From the IMG/VR virus record IMGVR_UViG_3300044630_002233, positions 7,787 to 71,786 of that record: a stretch of DNA of 64,000 bases. One strand, written 5' to 3'. Below are positions 4,935 through 63,654 of the stretch, piece by piece (the first letter of the stretch is position 1; each line of letters starts with the position of its first letter). The position numbers and the translations under genes were made by a program. The notes below the pieces were generated by a model. That model was given only the letters and a program-made list of their open reading frames with translations, was not told where the DNA came from and did no database searches. This DNA is from a virus (lineage: Duplodnaviria > Heunggongvirae > Uroviricota > Caudoviricetes).

Positions 4935-4942
4935 TATTTATA
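4935..4942 (-). promoter_or_regulatory. T4-type late promoter motif TATAAATA
   Basis: Minus strand reads TATAAATA immediately after the upstream stop codon and about 65 nt before the ATG at 4868. Confidence 0.45.
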
Positions 4943-5524: not shown

Positions 5525-7903
5525 TTATTTGTTTGAGTTTGGTAGGTGTAATGGATAACCAGTATAATCTACGCCAGTGCGTTTCTTACCAGTAGCTGCA
5601 CCTTTTTGTCTTGCCCCAGAAGTCGAACCTGCTGGACGTCCACGACCACGCTTCTCACCAGTTGGTGCTGGTTTCTTTTTTGGTTTATCTTCATCGTCAT
5701 CATCGTCGTCGCCTTGATATGATGAACCGTAAGATCCTTTATGAACATAACGACCGTTTTTATCAGTCTCATATTCGTCTAGTTGTTCGACTGACTCATC
5801 AATTTCATCAATCTCTTCTTCTATTACTGGAAGATTTTGAATGATATCTTCTTTAAATTGTTTATACTTTTTCAAGTCTCTCTCCTCTTTTTGTGCTTTG
5901 TCAGCTTGTAGTTTAGCAGCGATTGCCATCTGACGACGCTTCTCTGCGCTCTTACCTGCAAACTGAGGAGCATCTGATTGTTTGAAATCTTTGATTACAA
6001 CACCCATATCTGCCTTGGCCATATCCATCTTTTCGTCTAACTCAACTTCTTCATTAGTTGGTTTAGGTAAGTGTGGTGTTACTTTGAATTTATGTAGTTT
6101 GCCATCGCCAAGTTCTTTGTGCGCTTGGATATGAACAGACTTACCATCATTCTTAACTACTTTACCTTGCATCTTATCGCCAGTCTTACTTGCGTAGAAG
6201 TCAACGTGTTGTCCACTAACTTTATGGATATCCATCTTAGCGTGGTCAGGATGCATAACACCTTGTGACGCATACTCACGACCATTGATGCGCATTTCGT
6301 TCATTTCATATTCTTCTTTTGAGAAAGTAGAACGAGAAGTGTTGTAGTCGTGAACCGCACTGGTACGCTTTTTGTTTATTGCCTTACCGAAATCGTCAGC
6401 CTCAGCAGAAGTTTTGAATGGCTTCTTATGAACTACAACATTACCGTATGCGTTCATTGCTTTTGAATGATATGTTCCTGTAGTATTATGTTTTACTACA
6501 CCAGCATGATGCCATGTTTGGCTGGCTTCATCAATAGCAACATCTTCTTTGGTTAAACGATCAACTGCTTTATTAACACCAGCCTTACGTTTCCATGAAT
6601 TTGCTTTGTATTTGTTCGCAAGTGTTGTTGATGCTTCTTTCGAACTAGGTTTTCTAGCCTTGTCTGCCATGTTCTCAAAATCAGCACCGATTTTACGTTG
6701 AATAGTAGCATCATGCGCAGCTTTTTTGATGTAAGAACCCAAAGTTGATTTTGACAATTCATCAATCTGATCAACTTCTTCTTTCATCTTTCCAGTAGGC
6801 ATACCATTGATTGGTTTCTTAGTGGCTTTATATGCTTTATGTTCTGGTGTTCCCTTAATATATTTTCTATCAAGAGTTGGAGCAACTGGAGCAGTTTCTT
6901 TCATAGAAGCAGTTTTACGTTGCGCCTTGTCGCTCATGTTAGTGACTTTGCCACGTGGATCTTTGTTCTGCGCCTTCTTCCAATCACCCTCATAACTCCA
7001 GCTTTTTACTTTACCTGATTTATCTTTTACAACAGTAGAAGTTTCTTCGTTATGAAGACCGACGTAGTTGTGGTCATGAACCTTATAACCACTCTTCTTG
7101 TAATATGCAAGAGCAGTGTTGATAGCAGTATCTTTATCTGGAGCAGTTACTTTTGCTCTGCGCATCTTTTTCTCATTACGCTGAGAAACCATAGTGTGAT
7201 TTGGATTTGAAATAGTAACAGAAACAACGTGCTTACCTTCACACATTGATTTCTTTTTCGCTTCTTTCATTTCCTTCTCGTCTTCATCTTCTTCGCCTTC
7301 ATCTTCATCTTCACATTCACACTCTGCTTCTGGCATACCGCAGTCTTCGCATTTTTCATCTTCATCTTCAGTTTCGTCTTCGTCTTCGTCTTCTTCGCCT
7401 TCGTCTTTATCTTCTTTTACTGGAACACAATTTGGAACTTTCTTACCGTTCTTCATTTTCATTCCAACGGCAGTATAACCTTTCCAGCATGCATCCTTTA
7501 GACCTTCTTCTTCTAAGTCAACTTCTTCTGACATAGTAGAATGTTTTACTTGTGTCTTTGGACCATCGTTGGCTGAATGAAAATGAACGTCCTCGCCTTT
7601 GCGACGAGCAGTCCAGTGACGTCCAGTTTCATCTTTGAATTTATGTTCTTGTTCGTCTTTTAATTTTGCGATTGCTTGATGATGTTCTGGGTGCAAAGGA
7701 ATAGAGAAGTCTTTACCGTGATGTACAGTCTTCATTGTACCCCAAGAATATTTCTTAGTAGTAACTGTAGCTTCAGTAATGTCTTCTTTCATAGCATTTT
7801 TGCTCTTGCGTAGCAAGTGAAAGTCATGTGCATCAACTTTGCCGTTTTTGTTTTTATCAATCTTATGTTGATTGCCCTTTAAGGCTTCTTTAAAAGATAA
7901 CAT
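5525..7903 (-). CDS. giant charged protein with a poly-acidic block, Cys cluster, EF-hand-like loop and C-terminal AT-hooks (792 aa)
   Basis: DKNKNGKVDAHD EF-hand-like loop. Long D/E runs flank CEDCGMPEAECECEDE. The protein is Lys-rich throughout, has a DDDDDDED block, and ends in an AT-hook KRGRGRPAGS...GKKRTG. The N-terminus MLSFKEALKG is like the T4 internal-protein targeting motif. Confidence 0.5.
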   Translation of the reverse strand: MLSFKEALKGNQHKIDKNKNGKVDAHDFHLLRKSKNAMKEDITEATVTTKKYSWGTMKTVHHGKDFSIPLHPEHHQAIAKLKDEQEHKFKDETGRHWTARRKGEDVHFHSANDGPKTQVKHSTMSEEVDLEEEGLKDACWKGYTAVGMKMKNGKKVPNCVPVKEDKDEGEEDEDEDETEDEDEKCEDCGMPEAECECEDEDEGEEDEDEKEMKEAKKKSMCEGKHVVSVTISNPNHTMVSQRNEKKMRRAKVTAPDKDTAINTALAYYKKSGYKVHDHNYVGLHNEETSTVVKDKSGKVKSWSYEGDWKKAQNKDPRGKVTNMSDKAQRKTASMKETAPVAPTLDRKYIKGTPEHKAYKATKKPINGMPTGKMKEEVDQIDELSKSTLGSYIKKAAHDATIQRKIGADFENMADKARKPSSKEASTTLANKYKANSWKRKAGVNKAVDRLTKEDVAIDEASQTWHHAGVVKHNTTGTYHSKAMNAYGNVVVHKKPFKTSAEADDFGKAINKKRTSAVHDYNTSRSTFSKEEYEMNEMRINGREYASQGVMHPDHAKMDIHKVSGQHVDFYASKTGDKMQGKVVKNDGKSVHIQAHKELGDGKLHKFKVTPHLPKPTNEEVELDEKMDMAKADMGVVIKDFKQSDAPQFAGKSAEKRRQMAIAAKLQADKAQKEERDLKKYKQFKEDIIQNLPVIEEEIDEIDESVEQLDEYETDKNGRYVHKGSYGSSYQGDDDDDDEDKPKKKPAPTGEKRGRGRPAGSTSGARQKGAATGKKRTGVDYTGYPLHLPNSNK

Positions 7904-17414: not shown

Positions 17415-17477
17415 GGTAAAATTATACTCCCCGTGGCAAAGTTAGAGTCCACCACATATTTAGGGTTTAGCATAATT

Positions 17478-17930
17478 TTACAATGTAAAAAGGACTGGAG
17501 CCTCCATACCCTTCTCCCAGAAATACAACTCTACTTCTGGTGGTAGTTTCTTCCTCATTCCTCTAAGAACCTTTTTGTTGTCCTCATAGTGTCGTTGAAC
17601 ACCAAGTTCCAAAACTTTGGAAGTCTTGTAGTTTACAACATTTTCTACAGTTCGTGTATCCGTAAGTAAGTGGAAACTTAGGACACGTCCAGTATAGTTT
17701 TTATCCAGCCATTCTTTTGTGATATGGTGGATTTTTGATTCAGCCTTCCTAGCTGAGATGGCATGGAAGGTTTCCTCTACTGGTTCAATAAGACGTTCCG
17801 CAGACGCATACCATTCATAAAGAAAATCTTTACGTGCACGACGTTGCTCGCCATTCATCCTACCCCACTTTGTTTCGTTAGCAGGTGGCTGAGCAGCGAG
17901 AACACCGTCAATATCATAAGATACTATCAT
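17478..17930 (-). CDS. 5'(3')-deoxyribonucleotidase-like HAD nucleotidase
   Basis: MIVSYDIDGVL (DxDGVL, the motif of the NT5C family). The likely start is the ATG at 17930, which overlaps the upstream stop (ATGA); the track ORF begins 19 codons earlier. Confidence 0.5.
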   Translation of the reverse strand: MIVSYDIDGVLAAQPPANETKWGRMNGEQRRARKDFLYEWYASAERLIEPVEETFHAISARKAESKIHHITKEWLDKNYTGRVLSFHLLTDTRTVENVVNYKTSKVLELGVQRHYEDNKKVLRGMRKKLPPEVELYFWEKGMEAPVLFTL

Positions 17931-28025: not shown

Positions 28026-28033
28026 TATTTATA
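28026..28033 (-). promoter_or_regulatory. T4-type late promoter motif TATAAATA upstream of the long hsp20 leader
   Basis: Minus strand reads TATAAATA, about 190 nt upstream of the hsp20 ATG. Confidence 0.35.
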
Positions 28034-32390: not shown

Positions 32391-32402
32391 AATCAATTTC
32401 CT

Positions 32403-32579
32403 TTAAAACAAAACAACAAGAGTGGTAAGAACAATAATAACAAGAAGGGAAATGCCAACACTATATGCTGCCATCTTAACTACTTTCCATTGTTCTTTCT
32501 TTGTAAACTTTCTGAATAGATCTATACTGATAAAGAAAATAACAAAGAGAGAAATAAAAGCCAGAATTATTTTAATCAT
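32403..32579 (-). CDS. small two-TM membrane protein (58 aa), NfeD-like partner of the SPFH protein
   Basis: Hand translation gives MIKIILAFISLFVIFFISIDLFRKFTKKEQWKVVKMAAYSVGISLLVIIVLTTLVVLF. Its ATG overlaps the upstream stop (ATGA). Not in the ORF track. Confidence 0.45.
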   Translation of the reverse strand: MIKIILAFISLFVIFFISIDLFRKFTKKEQWKVVKMAAYSVGISLLVIIVLTTLVVLF

Positions 32580-32914
32580 TTTGAATCCTTTGAATATTTC
32601 ACATCGTGCTCATATAAGAACATTAAGCAACACATTGCATGTGCCAAGTGGTTCTTGCCAGTTTCTGGATCATTTTGCTCACCTTCTTTCCATGCCCAAA
32701 GGTGTCTTTGCATTGCGTCAAAGTACCTGCGCTTGGAATCAGGAACATGCTTCCAGTTATCTGGTTCATACTTCTCTGCGCCAAATGTTAGAATCTCTAC
32801 AGTGGCTTTTAATGCAAGCGGAGGGACTAAACCATATTGGAGTTTACCACCGTCAAACTTGCGACCACCTGTTGTTGCGTTTTGTGATTTTTTAACTTCT
32901 TCTTTAGTAGCCAT
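32576..32914 (-). CDS. conserved phage protein (112 aa), nucleotide-pyrophosphohydrolase-associated domain family
   Basis: FDGGKLQYGLVPPLALKATVEILTFGAEKYEPDNW is a motif I recall from phage proteins that are often fused to MazG-type domains. Confidence 0.35.
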   Translation of the reverse strand: MATKEEVKKSQNATTGGRKFDGGKLQYGLVPPLALKATVEILTFGAEKYEPDNWKHVPDSKRRYFDAMQRHLWAWKEGEQNDPETGKNHLAHAMCCLMFLYEHDVKYSKDSK

Positions 32915-32915
32915 A

Positions 32916-33194: not shown

Positions 33195-33452
33195 TTATCG
33201 AGTGAAAATCGCAGCACCGTAAATACGGTTAGCCAAAGCAACCATACGGCGATTTGGTTTACCGAGACGATACTTAACTACTTCGCTACCAGTGCTGAGT
33301 TTAGCACGGTTGCCATACACGCAATAACCTTGCTCACGCAAGTTACGGATAGCAGAAGCTGGGTGAGCAATACCGAAAGAAGCAGAGATTTGCTTAGCAG
33401 TAAATGCCTTACCCTTTTCAAGATGGGTTAGCAACAGATCTTGTTTAGACAT
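33195..33452 (-). CDS. putative HTH DNA-binding protein (85 aa)
   Basis: TAKQISASFGIAHPASAIRNLREQGY is helix-turn-helix-like. Start reassigned to the internal ATG at 33452, which has a GGAG RBS. The longer track ORF would run through an upstream terminator hairpin. Confidence 0.45.
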   Translation of the reverse strand: MSKQDLLLTHLEKGKAFTAKQISASFGIAHPASAIRNLREQGYCVYGNRAKLSTGSEVVKYRLGKPNRRMVALANRIYGAAIFTR

Positions 33453-33477
33453 ATTAAGTCTCCATAATAAAGCCATC

Positions 33478-33516
33478 ATAAAAAAAGCTGGGGCGACGAT
33501 GGCAGATAATCGCCCC
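33478..33516 (-). terminator. Intrinsic terminator (GGGGCGA-loop-TCGCCCC plus T7)
   Basis: Minus strand reads GGGGCGATTATCTGCCATCGTCGCCCCAGCTTTTTTTATG. Confidence 0.55.
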
Positions 33517-33536
33517 AACTAAAAACTCAAGTTCGA

Positions 33537-41384: not shown

Positions 41385-41907
41385 TAATATCTCCTTCGGT
41401 AAAGTCTTCTAGCGTAGAACGCTTTTTAGTTTTTTTCGGTTTAACAGGAACATCAGTATTGTTGTTCATCTGTAAATAGTCAACATACGCATTATTATAT
41501 AGTCCGTCTTCGTCATGCTCTTGCAGCTCAAATGCATCAAAGGGCATATCTTGAATCATTTTTTGCTTCACATAATTTTGTTTCTTTTCTTTTTGAATGC
41601 GTCTTAGAAAAGCATACCATATAATCTGTGTAAAATAAGCGAAGGGATTTTTAGATTTGTCTGGATCGAAATTTTTTACATACTGGATGCAGTTTTCAAT
41701 ACCATCACTAATCATCTCTTCTCGGTAAGTATAATTTAGAAAATTTGGTTTGTATGATAAATGCGTAGCAATTTGTAAAATACATTTACCAACATATTCT
41801 GGGACTCTTGGTTCAGCTTCTCCCGATTCATGAGCCTCAGCAATTTTCTTCCTATACTCAATTAATGCTGCTAGTAACTCAGCATTGTTTACATAATGTG
41901 TTGCCAT
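41377..41907 (-). CDS. 55: late-transcription sigma factor gp55
   Basis: YVNNAELLAALIEY ... EEMISDGIE ... NFDPDKSKNPFAYFTQ parallels T4 gp55 (YVNNKELLQAI ... QEMIADGIE ... NFDETKYKNPHAYITQ). Confidence 0.85.
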   Translation of the reverse strand: MATHYVNNAELLAALIEYRKKIAEAHESGEAEPRVPEYVGKCILQIATHLSYKPNFLNYTYREEMISDGIENCIQYVKNFDPDKSKNPFAYFTQIIWYAFLRRIQKEKKQNYVKQKMIQDMPFDAFELQEHDEDGLYNNAYVDYLQMNNNTDVPVKPKKTKKRSTLEDFTEGDING

Positions 41908-41998
41908 AATTTAAACCTTATTTTTTTGTTTTAACCAACTGTAATCATTATACTTTAATTATCTTTAAAAAGCAAGTTTGTTTTATTGGAAAATATAT

Positions 41999-42045
41999 TT
42001 GCTTCCAAACTTGACAACAGGCATAATTACGGTGTCAGGGTTGAA
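41999..42045. repeat. 45-nt palindromic repeat element, copy 2, upstream of gene 55
   Basis: TTGCTTCCAAACTTGACAACAGGCATAATTACGGTGTCAGGG; about 40 nt are identical to copy 1 at 2228..2272, which is preceded by a similar AAAAGCAAG block. Confidence 0.7.
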
Positions 42046-45068: not shown

Positions 45069-45076
45069 TATTTATA
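45069..45076 (-). promoter_or_regulatory. T4-type late promoter TATAAATA
   Basis: Minus strand reads TATAAATA 28 nt upstream of the gp3-like ATG. Confidence 0.5.
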
Positions 45077-45139: not shown

Positions 45140-46471
45140 TTACATTAGGTTGTTTACACGTACCTTGCGGTAGTAGTAGTTTTCGCCAGCAACCATGTTG
45201 CCAGAACCGTCCAATTGAACGAATGGATTTGAGACCATGCCGTAGCGAGTCTTGAAACCAATCTTTGGTTGGAAAGTAGCTGGGTCGATTGCACGAACCA
45301 ATTGTAGAGGAACGTATGGGCAGTAGAACAAACCAGCATCGAATGCTGAAGTGCCTTTGTAACCAACCACGAAGAACTGTTGACCAGTACCTGCAGATGC
45401 GTTAGCAACTGTATATGGATCAACATAAACTTTGTAGCGACCATTTAGAACACCAGCGAAAGTTGTTGAAGACTCATCAACATTCAAACCGTTGTTGCCA
45501 GCAAGAGCTGGAGTATAGTCAAGAACACCAGCCATAGCCATTGCAGAAGCAACATCGCTAGAGCAGATGATGAAGTTACCACGTCCACGACGAGTTTGTT
45601 GAGCAATTGCGTTTGCTTCACGCTCGATTTGGAATAGCAAGCCTTTGAACTTCTCAACAGACCAACGACCGTTAGCGTCAACGTCTAAGTCGAATACGCC
45701 AGGAGCTGCTGTTCCAGCTTGAGCACCAACCTTAGCAGAAGAGTACACAGTACGTACAACTTCACGGTTGATTTCAGCCAAGATTTCTGTTGAAAGGATG
45801 CTTGACAATTCGCCTTCAGCATCAAGACCATGAACTGATTTCAAGTCTTGTGCTAGTTCGATTGTGTATTCAGCTTTCAAAGCACGTGTCTTTGCAGTCA
45901 CGCTAGTTTTCTCGATAGAGAAAGCCATTTCATTGAAAGTGTTAGCGCCACCAAGATCTTCAGCAGTAGCTGTAGACATACCACGACCGATGTCATAGTT
46001 AGCATCGTATGGGTTGTTGCCACGCTGACCTTGATAACCAGCAGTGCCACTATCACGGTCACCAGTACCAGAGAATAGTGTATCTGCTTCGTTGTAAAGA
46101 GCTTCAGTGCCGTTTTGTGCGCTGTATTTGCTCTTCATTGCGAAGATAAGACCAGTTGGTTGTGTCATTGGCTGAACACCGCAAATGTCATAAGCGATCA
46201 TTTGTGGAGCTGCACGACGTACTAGGCTGATTAGAACTGGGTCATAGCCAGCCATATTAGCATTAGTACCTGCGCCACCAAGAGAGATACCAGCGCCTGC
46301 AGCGTTAACTGGAGTTGTCTCAAATAGTTGTTGACGTTCTTCTTTAAGAGCCTTTTCTTGGTTCTCTAGTAGAACTGCTGTAACTTCCTTACGGTAGTTA
46401 TCTTTAATTGTTGGCATTGATTCATGTTCTAGAATCGGTGCCCATTTTTTTAATAGATCTGTGCGGTCCAT
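45140..46471 (-). CDS. 23: major capsid protein (gp23)
   Basis: 443 aa; flanked by scaffold, protease and portal genes in T4 order. HK97-fold-like Gly/Ala-rich composition. Confidence 0.8.
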   Translation of the reverse strand: MDRTDLLKKWAPILEHESMPTIKDNYRKEVTAVLLENQEKALKEERQQLFETTPVNAAGAGISLGGAGTNANMAGYDPVLISLVRRAAPQMIAYDICGVQPMTQPTGLIFAMKSKYSAQNGTEALYNEADTLFSGTGDRDSGTAGYQGQRGNNPYDANYDIGRGMSTATAEDLGGANTFNEMAFSIEKTSVTAKTRALKAEYTIELAQDLKSVHGLDAEGELSSILSTEILAEINREVVRTVYSSAKVGAQAGTAAPGVFDLDVDANGRWSVEKFKGLLFQIEREANAIAQQTRRGRGNFIICSSDVASAMAMAGVLDYTPALAGNNGLNVDESSTTFAGVLNGRYKVYVDPYTVANASAGTGQQFFVVGYKGTSAFDAGLFYCPYVPLQLVRAIDPATFQPKIGFKTRYGMVSNPFVQLDGSGNMVAGENYYYRKVRVNNLM

Positions 46472-47541: not shown

Positions 47542-47549
47542 TATTTATA
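47542..47549 (-). promoter_or_regulatory. T4-type late promoter TATAAATA upstream of the scaffold gene
   Basis: Minus strand reads TATAAATA in the 47-nt gap between the protease and scaffold genes. Confidence 0.45.
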
Positions 47550-48208: not shown

Positions 48209-48616
48209 TTAACTCCCTACAACAGTTTCGTCATCATAGATACCGAAAGCTGCAGTTTCGATTGGATCATTATATCCATCAATTTTCTTAAGGTGTAACA
48301 GAATCATTCCTGCGCCACCAAAGGTAACAACGATATCGTGTGTTTCTTGATCGGTAATAACCCACTCAGCATCGATATGATCGCCACCACCAAAGTAGTT
48401 AGCAACCACTACGCTGTTTCTTGTTAAACTTACATTCGCAGCTGTGCTAAAATAAGCAGCTGAAATATAAACCTTTTGGGCTGCGCCTAATGTTTCGTTT
48501 GTAAGTTTAAGATCGGTTTGAAGGTCAATCGTTGATGTGTCATTCGCAGCTGTCGCAACGATTCTAACGATCGCATCTTTATTTGTTTTCTTTGTTACTG
48601 TTTTAGTAGCAGCCAT
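48209..48616 (-). CDS. hypothetical virion protein (135 aa)
   Basis: ORF between the prohead core and protease genes. Confidence 0.4.
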   Translation of the reverse strand: MAATKTVTKKTNKDAIVRIVATAANDTSTIDLQTDLKLTNETLGAAQKVYISAAYFSTAANVSLTRNSVVVANYFGGGDHIDAEWVITDQETHDIVVTFGGAGMILLHLKKIDGYNDPIETAAFGIYDDETVVGS

Positions 48617-48619
48617 TTC

Positions 48620-49165
48620 TTACCCTTTAATGTCTCTAACAATACGCATAAAATTATCCTTAGATTCTCTCATGTACTCAACTATCTCGGGACGGTCTTT
48701 CAATAACATATTTAGGTTAGATTGAGTAGATTCGTCAATAGCAACTACAGTACCATCTTCTAGCGTATAGTCTAATTTTCCAGCGATTAGCGTAGAGCCT
48801 GTCTTCATTTCAAGAATAACAGGGTCTACTGTAAAAATGTTAGAAGAAGCCAATTCAATATATGACTCGATCAAAGTATCGGTTATCTTTTCTATATTGT
48901 AGTGTTTCTTAATATATGACGCTACTTTATTTTCTGGTATTGTTATATCGATACTTTCTAATATTTCTTGTGTAGATATATGCTCTTTACTGTATTCTCT
49001 GGCTTCTTCTAAACTCGAAAATTCTACATCTAACTTTTCGCCATTAATGTATACAGATAGATCTGACGTAATTTTTACATTAGATCTATTCTTACCGTAT
49101 AAAAAAGATTCTGCGATGTTCGTCGCACCTAAAATCTTTTTTCTTAATGACGAAAACTGTAGCAT
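48620..49165 (-). CDS. prohead core protein (gp68-like)
   Basis: Position between the portal and protease genes; acidic 181-aa protein. Confidence 0.4.
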   Translation of the reverse strand: MLQFSSLRKKILGATNIAESFLYGKNRSNVKITSDLSVYINGEKLDVEFSSLEEAREYSKEHISTQEILESIDITIPENKVASYIKKHYNIEKITDTLIESYIELASSNIFTVDPVILEMKTGSTLIAGKLDYTLEDGTVVAIDESTQSNLNMLLKDRPEIVEYMRESKDNFMRIVRDIKG

Positions 49166-53377: not shown

Positions 53378-54958
53378 TTAGAAATTCAAAGGCGCAGCTT
53401 CCTCTTCCCTGCCATCCGAAATAAACCCGAATGGTGTTAACTGTTCTTCTATTGCTTGTATTTGTTTTTCGTATATAACAGTTCTCATATTAACGTCAGT
53501 AAGCTCCTTAAAGTATGGCTGGGTTGACAACCAAGCAAAAAGAACCAAAGTCATAACGATATCGTCATGATAACCGTCATCTGCAGCGAAAGATCCTTTC
53601 GATTCGATGAAAGTTGAAATCTCAGAAATTGCATCAAAGTCCGTGATCAACAATTTCTTCTCTTCAATTAGAGTTTTCAGATTCATGCAACCACGTCTTT
53701 TGACTGCCTTATCCGTGTAAACACCCAACTGAGTCTTACCACCACCAAAGCCACCAGAGACAAATTGCCCCTTTGTGGTTCTGTTGACGAATAATATATT
53801 TTCGTATTCTAATTCGTTGTATAAAATATCAGTAACTTGATCGCTTGTATTTTGTTCTACAAGCACAAAAGCATTATTGTATTCTCTACCCACCTTCTCA
53901 ATTATAGAAGGGTAAAACATAGGACTGACTGAATTATTCCTATATTTAGCTACAATGCGATATGGCACTTCTGTAACATCAGTAACCGTAAACGCACTAT
54001 AATCGCCCTCAACCCCACGAGCAATATCAGCTACCAAGGTATAGACATGCCCTTCTTCTGGAGGGGTGATAACATCAAGTCCATCTTTCTGGAAAACATA
54101 AGGCGATGGCGACATTTGGGCGATAGTATCTGCAGCAATAAGTGTAAGCGCAGAACCAAGAAACTTACAAAGAACCTCTTGGTTGAACTTAATTTCGCCA
54201 AGCTGTCTTCTTTGCTCTTCAGCCCAAACTTCATCTCTACCTGGAATTTTCCAGTAAGGGATGAACATATGTTTAAAGTCGTTTCTACCGTTCTCGGCAT
54301 CATTCCAGAATTTCCAGAAATGATTATATCCAAGAGGTGTAGAAGTAATTAGGATCTTAGTCGTTTTACCAGCAGAAATTGTTGGATAAACGGAAGTAAA
54401 GAAACCCTCAGCAATTTGGTTTGGAATAATCGCTGCTTCGTCAATATACAATAAGTTTACAGACTTAGAACGGATACCCGAAATAGTTGTCGCAGCAGTA
54501 AATACTTTACTACCATTTTCTAATTCAATATCACCTTTGTTCCAAGTGGTAACACCTTGTTGTAACCAAACTGGAAGATTCTCATACATCAACTGATAAC
54601 GAGATAAAATTTCCTGAGCTGTCTTTGCCTTGTTAGCCAACACAGCAACGGTCTTACTATCATTAAAAATGGTATACCATAAAATATATGCAGCAGAAGT
54701 GGTCGTCTTACCTTGCTGACGACCTTCCATCAAGATCACCTTACGTTCATTATGTATAAGTTGAACTTTTTCTTTTTGACAATCATACAACTTAAATGGC
54801 TGTAACCCTTCATCAAGAGTTACAATATAACAGTAGTTGTCAATAAAGTAAATTGGATCTTGCGAACATTTTATATACTCTTGTACTTGCTCTGGCGTAA
54901 ACTCAATTTTTACGCCAGCAGCTTTTACTGAGGCATTCGAATTATAAAAATCAGCCAT
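53378..54958 (-). CDS. 17: terminase large subunit (gp17)
   Basis: ATPase Walker A-like region with Walker B LLYIDEAA, and C-terminal RNaseH-like nuclease aspartates. Confidence 0.85.
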   Translation of the reverse strand: MADFYNSNASVKAAGVKIEFTPEQVQEYIKCSQDPIYFIDNYCYIVTLDEGLQPFKLYDCQKEKVQLIHNERKVILMEGRQQGKTTTSAAYILWYTIFNDSKTVAVLANKAKTAQEILSRYQLMYENLPVWLQQGVTTWNKGDIELENGSKVFTAATTISGIRSKSVNLLYIDEAAIIPNQIAEGFFTSVYPTISAGKTTKILITSTPLGYNHFWKFWNDAENGRNDFKHMFIPYWKIPGRDEVWAEEQRRQLGEIKFNQEVLCKFLGSALTLIAADTIAQMSPSPYVFQKDGLDVITPPEEGHVYTLVADIARGVEGDYSAFTVTDVTEVPYRIVAKYRNNSVSPMFYPSIIEKVGREYNNAFVLVEQNTSDQVTDILYNELEYENILFVNRTTKGQFVSGGFGGGKTQLGVYTDKAVKRRGCMNLKTLIEEKKLLITDFDAISEISTFIESKGSFAADDGYHDDIVMTLVLFAWLSTQPYFKELTDVNMRTVIYEKQIQAIEEQLTPFGFISDGREEEAAPLNF

Positions 54959-55899
54959 TAAACTACAGTAATAGTACCTAACATAGTTCCTGGATTTGTT
55001 TTACTGCGATACTTAAATGTTGCGCCAGTAGCAGCATCCATAGGAATCGTGAAAGTAACAGTTTCGTTTTGGTCAGCTTCGTTTCTTGTTGCGCCAGTTG
55101 ATGAAATATATGATGTCGCAGGTGCCACGTTTGAACTGTCTAGAATTTCTAAAATTTGTCCTGAACGTGTATTTGTAAAACGGTATGTATGACCACGATA
55201 CACATATAAAGTTGGGTCGCCAACACCAGCAGATGGAAGACCAGAACCTGTTACGTTATACTCAGTTGTTAATGCACCACCGAAACTAAATGACAATGCT
55301 GGGTGCATGAAAATATCACCCTTTACACCATTGACTGTTTTTACGCCATCGTTAGTAATCTGGAAGTTTGTATTTAGAGATGATGATAAAGCGATACCGT
55401 CACCAGCAATAATAGCAAGGTCTTTAGTTCCAGATGGATTTAACGAAGCAAGTCTTAGTGTAATCTGTCCAGCAAATAATGTTTCTGCTGTAATGTCATA
55501 TGTTGTATTGGTATCAGTAGAATTTAATGTAATTGTATTAGCGTCAGTTCTAACAACCGTCATGTTAGTTCCTGAAGCAAACTTAACATCATCAGTACTA
55601 GCATCTGTGCCTGTTAAGCGCAGGTTTACACCACCAGTTGCTGTCTCTGATGAAATTGCGTATTGAGTGTTTGTATCAGTAGCGATACTTGCTGGTGCAA
55701 ATGTTGTTCCATTCCAACGCAAAGCGTCTCCTGAAGCTGCTCCAGCAACGCTAACCTTTAATGTAGTAGCTCCAGAACTACCTCCAAGAGCATCATACAA
55801 TTCAGTTAATGTACTATTTACTTTGACGCCAGCATCACGCAGCGTGTCACCAGTACCATCGTTTGGTGTTGTTCCAACATTAATTAGTTGTTTTGCCAT
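54958..55899 (-). CDS. fiber-like structural protein (313 aa) occupying the position where gene 16 (small terminase) is expected
   Basis: The N-terminus LINVGTTPNDGTGDTLRDAGVKVNSTLTELY is like phage tail-fiber/baseplate N-termini. The rest is Thr/Gly/Asn-rich beta-type sequence. Confidence 0.45.
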   Translation of the reverse strand: MAKQLINVGTTPNDGTGDTLRDAGVKVNSTLTELYDALGGSSGATTLKVSVAGAASGDALRWNGTTFAPASIATDTNTQYAISSETATGGVNLRLTGTDASTDDVKFASGTNMTVVRTDANTITLNSTDTNTTYDITAETLFAGQITLRLASLNPSGTKDLAIIAGDGIALSSSLNTNFQITNDGVKTVNGVKGDIFMHPALSFSFGGALTTEYNVTGSGLPSAGVGDPTLYVYRGHTYRFTNTRSGQILEILDSSNVAPATSYISSTGATRNEADQNETVTFTIPMDAATGATFKYRSKTNPGTMLGTITVV

Positions 55900-63646: not shown

Positions 63647-63654
63647 TATTTATA
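63647..63654 (-). promoter_or_regulatory. T4-type late promoter TATAAATA
   Basis: Minus strand reads TATAAATA between the terminator at 63.68 kb and the gene start at 63622. Confidence 0.5.

Follow-up and report, generated by a model that had tools for sequence, protein, structure and literature searches.

A gp9/gp10-type protein in the gene 16 position of an uncultured clade of T4-like phages, and a gp16 gene about 39 kb away in its members

Few gene orders of T4-like phages are as stable as the string 13-14-15-16-17, by which annotators name the small terminase (TerS). What, then, is a gene that stands in the place of gene 16 and does not resemble a small terminase, and where is TerS encoded? 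This question is raised by a stretch of 64,000 nucleotides (hereafter the window) of the Caudoviricetes record IMGVR_UViG_3300044630_002233 (positions 7,787 to 71,786 of that record). Between gp15 and gp17, the large terminase (TerL), its minus strand carries an open reading frame (ORF) of 313 amino acids (aa), here called X, which begins with MAKQLINVGTTPNDGTGDTLRDAGVKVN, the N-terminus already quoted in an initial annotation made from the sequence alone. That annotation had seen an otherwise T4-like order 13-14-15-X-17-18-19-20, which holds: each named gene of the series gp13 to gp20 is strongly matched in Pfam or PHROGs. It had also described X as fibre-like, and proposed that TerS was highly diverged or located elsewhere, or that a structural gene had been inserted next to terminase.

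X is a real gene, given its 233 homologues at E<=1e-5 and its presence in 25 IMG/VR loci. It matches the Pfam family PF07880 (T4_gp9_10_N; 1.4e-7, 32.2 bits for a cut-off of 25) and, in two stretches, phrog_677, 'baseplate wedge tail fiber protein connector' (2.4e-41). With tblastn, essentially only cyanophages were matched, at the gene annotated gp9, with 32-41% identity and up to 100% coverage; coverage of 100% is attained with the gp9 genes of Syn19, S-B64 and S-H35, and identity over the full length is 32%. A profile built from 47 X homologues matched residues 2-43 of the solved T4 gp10 (E 2e-11), a 'baseplate wedge tail fiber connector' of T4-like type (E 7e-8), and residues 7-83 of T4 gp9 (E 4e-7); the columns G9, N13-D14-G15-T16-G17 and T19-L20-R21 are invariant across these 47 sequences. 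Against solved structures, no match of the profile extended past the N-terminal part, which ends at about residue 80-107. The AlphaFold monomer model of X is all-beta except for one 6-residue helix, and its top match in BFVD is the 'baseplate wedge tail fiber connector' of cyanophage S-RIM14. Viral structure models further indicate that the C-terminal module is common to several cyanophage fibre proteins.

X is therefore no terminase subunit but a structural protein akin to cyanophage gp9, as the initial annotation had sensed from its fibre-like character. With the cyanophage gp9 connector (T4-like gene cluster 398; phrog_677; Syn19, S-RIM14) it has in common the gp9/10 motif at the N-terminus, a body rich in beta structure and a cupredoxin-like C-terminal domain; it is about 100 aa shorter (313 versus 412-413 aa). 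Its likeness to T4 gp9 and gp10 (PF07880; PDB 1QEX, 5IV5) is confined to the N-terminal 45-80 residues or so, which are homologous, whereas the remainder differs: the middle beta-sandwich and C-terminal beta-barrel domains of T4 gp9 proper are not matched, and neither gp9 nor gp10 of T4 is among the 50 best PDB fold matches of X, which cupredoxins dominate.

Could X nevertheless be a highly diverged or novel TerS that holds the role of gp16 as well as its position? It does lie directly upstream of gp17, to which it appears to be translationally coupled, and the window holds no TerS. Position alone, however, does not define a family. X has no match to TerS families (PF11053 and the PHROGs TerS families), the Pfam and PHROGs searches yielding baseplate or fibre families only. 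Small terminases of this kind are helix-rich proteins of ~120-180 aa with a central oligomerisation helix hairpin; X is about twice the length of a gp16, is modelled as all-beta, begins with a gp9/gp10 domain and ends in a cupredoxin domain, and in relatives stands on the same contigs as a normal gp16. We thus give next to no credence to X as a TerS; it shares only its genomic position with T4 gp16 (PF11053 DNA_Packaging; phrog_445), the family to which the real TerS of the clade belongs.

The absence of a recognisable TerS, noticed earlier, extends from the slot to the whole window. A hidden Markov model (HMM) of cyanophage gp16 (S-PM2, Syn1, S-SKS1) gave a best value of only E=1.3 against the six-frame translation, and an HMM of 24 diverse gp16 sequences gave no hit at E<=1 in any of the six frames. 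No terminase small subunit was found by PHROGs among about 50 window proteins (small ORFs and structural genes), nor by Pfam among the structural genes and ten small ORFs that PHROGs left unnamed or placed in families of unknown function. Several ORFs were considered as candidates and set aside. The 102-aa ORF at 842-1150 is the best phmmer match of S-PM2 gp16 (E=1.3) and, having no family support, is attributed to chance. Nothing points to TerS in the 181-aa and 135-aa ORFs of the portal-protease interval, which occupy the gp67/gp68 position and are conserved in the clade only. A small winged-helix protein encoded among replication genes (33195-33518, minus strand; PF14090 HTH_39, E 2.6e-7) was likewise examined as a TerS-like candidate, and nothing supports it.

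In relatives of the window, a recognisable gp16 lies elsewhere and on the other strand. The upstream walk led across the baseplate module, which comprises gp25, gp6, a gp7-like wedge protein of 844 aa, gp8 and two giant proteins; beyond it, we found in several contigs that the gp16 HMM matched an opposite-strand ORF about 9 kb upstream of gp6. The arrangement can be read in contig L282: gp48 and gp53 lie on one strand and, divergently on the other, follow gp4 (148 aa), gp2 (199 aa), a tail-tube-family gene (224 aa), gp16 (139 aa), gp26 (237 aa; PF12322), a gp51-like gene and the tape measure gp29 (823 aa). Beyond the tape measure, gp32 is found on the gp48/gp53 strand, together with gp59 in L321. 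The 139-aa protein matches PF11053 with 43 bits (cut-off 25), phrog_445 (1.1e-38) and phrog_735 (1.1e-22). Clade gp16 proteins measure 139-141 aa, membership of the TerS family was verified for the L282 protein and for P0121/P0135, and the precomputed annotation gives PF11053 on all 120 gp16 homologues among the matches listed. With a gp16 so easily recognised in relatives, the idea of a highly diverged TerS is not supported, and that of a TerS located elsewhere is borne out by these relatives and by a contig from the same sample as near-identical copies of the window.

Two long contigs of the Joint Genome Institute (JGI) place X and gp16 on one molecule. In Ga0568978_0000016 (83,581 bp), gp15-X-TerL lies at ~0.1-2.6 kb, with X (84% identity) at ~1.7-2.6 kb, and gp16 at 41,595-42,020 on the strand opposite X. 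In Ga0480372_0000008 (163,322 bp), X (76% identity) lies at 85,086-86,015 and gp16 at 124,794-125,216. X and gp16 therefore co-occur on single contigs in relatives, with a spacing of 38.8-39.0 kb in both; the stitched spacing for the window lineage is ~39.6 kb. The gp16 position is the same in the marine sub-clade (L338): this contig shares its sample with a 131-kb contig that bears X, and its gp48 has 99% identity to the gp48 of L216, a contig which matches the end of that 131-kb contig at 99.6% identity. The order gp4-gp2-tail-tube-family gene-(0-3 small ORFs)-gp16-gp26 was seen in about 40 further IMG/VR contigs. TerS is thus present and not adjacent to TerL: in the clade, gp16 stands between the tail-tube-family gene and gp26, on the strand opposite gp17 and ~39 kb away from it, whereas in T4-like isolates it stands between gp15 and gp17. 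The nearest gp16 among isolated phages is only ~41% identical and, in the records inspected, lies between gp15 and TerL. Concerning a relocated gp16, we found nothing relevant in the literature searched.

A comparison of gene order bears on how old the arrangement is. IMG/VR contigs carrying X at 46-100% identity come from freshwater and marine samples, and every one that reaches far enough has gp13-gp14-gp15-X-gp17-gp18, with TerL at 64-100% identity. In sister groups, which were retrieved by way of a giant structural protein that they share, the order is gp13-gp14-gp15-gp16-gp17; in cyanophage-like contigs it is gp15-gp16-(small ORFs)-gp17. Among isolates, a gp16 of ~140 aa directly follows gp15 in S-PM2 and Syn1; in S-SKS1, where it stands in the gp15-gp17 interval too, four hypothetical genes separate it from TerL. 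In the OM43 phage Melnitz (a Methylophilales phage of the Kyanoviridae), the interval from gp15 to TerL holds, in this order, five ORFs, TerS and a gene for a 677-aa F5/8 type C protein. This large, beta-rich, non-packaging gene directly upstream of TerL indicates that the gp15-TerL interval accepts structural-looking inserts; it is unrelated to X, and Melnitz retains TerS in the interval. The occupation of the gene 16 slot by X is clade-wide and appears to be an old trait of one clade rather than a recent insertion. The gp15-gp17 interval is also a known insertion place. The proposal of a structural gene inserted next to terminase thus stands in part: the only gp9/gp10-type gene of the lineage does sit there, but the arrangement is old and shared by the clade.

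Taken together, we consider that X is the single gp9/gp10-type baseplate-periphery protein of this lineage and lies outside packaging, that gp16 came to lie about 39 kb away, and that packaging uses an ordinary T4-type TerS and TerL (with a probability of roughly 85%). X is the sole ORF with the gp9/gp10 N-terminal motif in a stitched genome of ~104 kb (window, upstream baseplate module and gp16 cluster), as against two such genes in T4, and the baseplate module of the clade (gp25-gp6-844 aa-gp8) is devoid of a gp9-type gene. In Syn19, the neighbours of gp9 are a 6484-aa structural protein on one side and, on the other, a 1399-aa annotated baseplate wedge subunit followed by gp8, whereas X lies between gp15 and gp17.

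On this evidence, X would be an orthologue of the cyanophage 'gp9' with no role in DNA packaging, most likely a trimeric short fibre or a fibre connector or socket. Its N-terminal domain may anchor to the gp7-like wedge protein, with the cupredoxin-fold domain facing outward. X would be expressed with the neck-to-terminase gene string and translationally coupled to gp17, and packaging would proceed as in T4, by a gp16 oligomer and gp17, from genes in two separate late clusters. In the ancestor of the clade, the gp9-type gene, which is part of the baseplate module in Syn19, would have come between gp15 and gp17, and gp16 would have come to its place ~39 kb away on the opposite strand, between the tail-tube-family gene and gp26.

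Several observations weigh against this reading. The placement of X in the virion is a prediction based on homology, and model confidence is low for its first 20 residues and the repeat region (the predicted local distance difference test, pLDDT, is below 50 at the N-terminus). No contig joining the window to gp16 was found, and ~20 kb separate L282 from the upstream end of a contig identical to the window. Finally, in contig L318 (IMGVR_UViG_3300008113_001458), gp16 (1965-2135) has lost an internal segment in frame and encodes only 57 aa.

The placement in the virion invites another reading, in which X is a whisker-like fibre at the neck or collar instead of the baseplate. X adjoins the neck genes gp13-gp15, and the T4 collar-whisker gene wac adjoins gp13. 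The only homology of X to proteins of known location is nevertheless with the N-termini of gp9 and gp10, on the baseplate wedge, and its cyanophage orthologue is encoded inside the baseplate module. A neck fibre is thus unlikely, and we favor the periphery of the baseplate as the predicted site.

The connection of gp16 to the strain of the window is indirect. L282 most probably belongs to that strain: its sample (3300034283) also contains L003 and L113, whose identity to the window is 99.98-99.99%, and over 9.3 kb L282 shares 96% identity with the upstream contig of a strain that in turn matches the window at ~95.5%. The 139-aa gp16 is intact both in L282 and in L283, which come from samples that hold the window strain, so that the window genome would carry the gp16 seen in the same-sample contig. 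In the upstream walk, contigs related at 100% and 98% stop ~650 bp short of gp16 and give no direct linkage to the window strain; a downstream walk via NrdA, which is ~80% identical across many phages, fetched loci devoid of gp16. We also observed that L199 and IMGVR_UViG_3300032092_000038, independent assemblies of near-identical strains, both end (position 1) inside gp2, ~650 bp before gp16, at a point equivalent to L282 ~9344. The tail-tube-family gene that follows gp2 encodes 224 or 251 aa depending on the strain, suggesting a strain-variable spot that breaks assemblies.

If L318 reflected the real state, the window phage would have lost a functional TerS and would package by means of TerL only or of TerL and some borrowed factor. 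L318, the sole evidence for such a loss, matches the upstream contig of the ~95.5% strain at 99.9% identity and retains only the 57-aa remnant; two assemblies of that strain end ~650 bp ahead of the place where gp16 is expected. In the same contig, however, gp2 and the tape measure are shortened and gp32 lacks an intact ORF, although the DNA there is 99.7% identical, and its gp16 is a mosaic with an L205-like N-terminus and an L282-like C-terminus. Given these shortened or broken neighbours and mixed ends, we rejected L318 as a natural gp16 deletion; it is probably a chimeric or error-rich assembly. With gp16 intact in L282 and L283 and kept by all other relatives, the loss of TerS is very improbable, and a relocated gp16 remains our reading for the window phage as well.

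Of special interest is the C-terminal domain of X. In Foldseek searches against the PDB it matched with probability 1.00 the N-terminal cupredoxin domain of the Hyphomicrobium nitrite reductase, azurin, amicyanin and plastocyanin, and the TM-score of X normalised to the target is 0.5-0.6 for single-domain cupredoxins. X residues ~200-313 thus have the fold of amicyanin, plastocyanin and azurin, although here the domain forms part of a virion protein. X has no match to Pfam Copper-bind, and some members of the family bear the JGI label 'plastocyanin'. About a cupredoxin domain in phage baseplate or tail proteins, the literature searched, itself an incomplete body, held nothing relevant.

We aligned 122 family members (homologues P0001-P0120, X of the window and Syn19 gp9, L331:8001-9239). 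In 82 of them, His, Cys, His and Met are all present at the columns that bind copper in amicyanin and plastocyanin, with the amicyanin-like spacing His...Cys-x2-His-x2/3-Met. These 82 are the marine sub-clade (for example ...NAHPLEIV...YQYRCTAHPSNMLGTITVV), Syn19 gp9 (...GGHPFRI...YYQCTLHAQMQGTINVV) and two freshwater variants. In the other 40, which include X of the window, His, Cys and His are lost jointly, giving Gln/Ser/Asn, Glu/Ser/Asn or Gln/Ser/Glu, and Met is retained. This all-or-none loss suggests that a genuine metal site exists where the ligands are retained. The window protein, unlike Syn19 gp9, has Gln/Ser/Asn/Met and not His/Cys/His/Met at these columns, and copper binding by it is not expected. 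It is tempting, if speculative, to propose that the domain forms a working type-1 copper site on the virions of marine T4-like phages and cyanophages, and that this site was lost in the freshwater lineage of the window; we regard this as possible rather than probable. If true, it would imply copper or redox chemistry in the fibre assembly or host recognition of marine phages, dispensed with in freshwater ones. Separately, we observed another cupredoxin-fold gene close to terminase: the small inserted ORFs that stand immediately before TerL in cyanophage S-RIM8 (L001) are accompanied by a free-standing gene for plastocyanin, petE (NC_020486.1 96671-97006).

Every sizeable ORF of the window lies on the minus strand, and the features discussed are collected in Table 1. 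In the order of transcription, three fibre-like ORFs (856, 248 and 542 aa) precede gp13-gp14-gp15-X-gp17-gp18-gp19-gp20, which are followed by two ORFs, gp21-gp22 and a 443-aa ORF. X starts 10 nt past the stop of gp15 and is preceded by a GGGG-rich ribosome-binding site. The nucleotide that its stop shares with the start of gp17, already pointed out in the initial annotation, can be read directly, and such a one-base overlap is indicative of translational coupling. The gp17 of the window is 51% identical to cyanophage gp17. The 135-aa and 181-aa ORFs have no Pfam or PHROGs match and are kept only within the clade, at 39-100% identity.

Table 1. Features around gene X, numbered from the first letter of the window.
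Feature	Positions	Strand	Basis or remark
gp13 neck protein, 246 aa	57313-58053	minus	phrog_211 at 1.8e-41; PF26809 Phage_T4_gp13 on the identical gene of L003
gp14 neck protein, 218 aa	56653-57309	minus	PF11649 at 6.5e-34; phrog_460
gp15 tail sheath stabiliser, 247 aa	55910-56653	minus	PF16724 at 4e-75; phrog_227 at 8.5e-81
Gene X, 313 aa, ATG start	54958-55899	minus	gp9/gp10-type baseplate/fibre protein in the gene 16 position
X residues ~1-45, gp9/gp10 N-terminal attachment motif IxVGxxxNDGTGDTLRxxGxKxNxxxxELY	55765-55899	minus	profile matches, invariant columns
X residues ~58-185, two tandem beta-strand repeat units (DTNTxY..S.E....G...LRL.G...)	55345-55728	minus	model pLDDT 55-75; repeat visible in the alignment
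X residues ~200-313, cupredoxin-fold C-terminal domain, 3/4 copper ligands lost	54961-55302	minus	pLDDT 87-97; Foldseek
TAATG, X stop / gp17 start, one-base overlap	54956-54960	minus	direct sequence reading (gtt TAATG gct)
gp17 large terminase (TerL), 526 aa	53378-54958	minus	Pfam Terminase_6N and Terminase_6C; several PHROGs TerL families
Sheath gp18, tube gp19, portal gp20	beyond gp17 in the direction of transcription	minus	Pfam and PHROGs
135-aa and 181-aa ORFs, portal-protease interval, T4 gp67/gp68 position	48209-48616, 48620-49165	minus	
gp21 prohead protease, gp22 scaffold		minus	sequence reading; Pfam on related-contig homologues (PF03420, PF25623)
443-aa ORF, putative major capsid protein	45140-46471	minus	homologue in relatives carries PF07068 Gp23

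Some further observations were made on the window. Five copies of TATAAATA, which resembles the T4 late promoter, occur at 4935-4942, 28026-28033, 45069-45076, 47542-47549 and 63647-63654, all on the minus strand, which is the coding strand, in short intergenic spaces just upstream of genes. Their number is not above chance (4.45 expected). None lies near X or gp17, and the divergent intergenic region between gp4 and gp48 in L282 has no copy. Two stretches of ~0.5 kb (17415-17926 and 32397-32915) are without a minus-strand ORF of at least 45 aa in an otherwise packed strand, and ARAGORN detected no tRNA in the whole window.

The finding amounts to a variant gene order within the T4-like plan of an uncultured clade rather than to the lack of a packaging protein; the packaging mechanism is not new, and the biological interest of the variant is modest. 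The clade is abundant in lake and ocean metagenomes, where its near-complete contigs reach ~150-165 kb, and it breaks the 13-14-15-16-17 rule. Annotation based on position would here call a baseplate protein TerS, or report TerS as missing. TerS and TerL need not be encoded together in T4-like phages. The copper-ligand pattern seen at the C-terminus of the family opens a separate line of enquiry that is accessible to experiment, and it is the most novel thread of this work.

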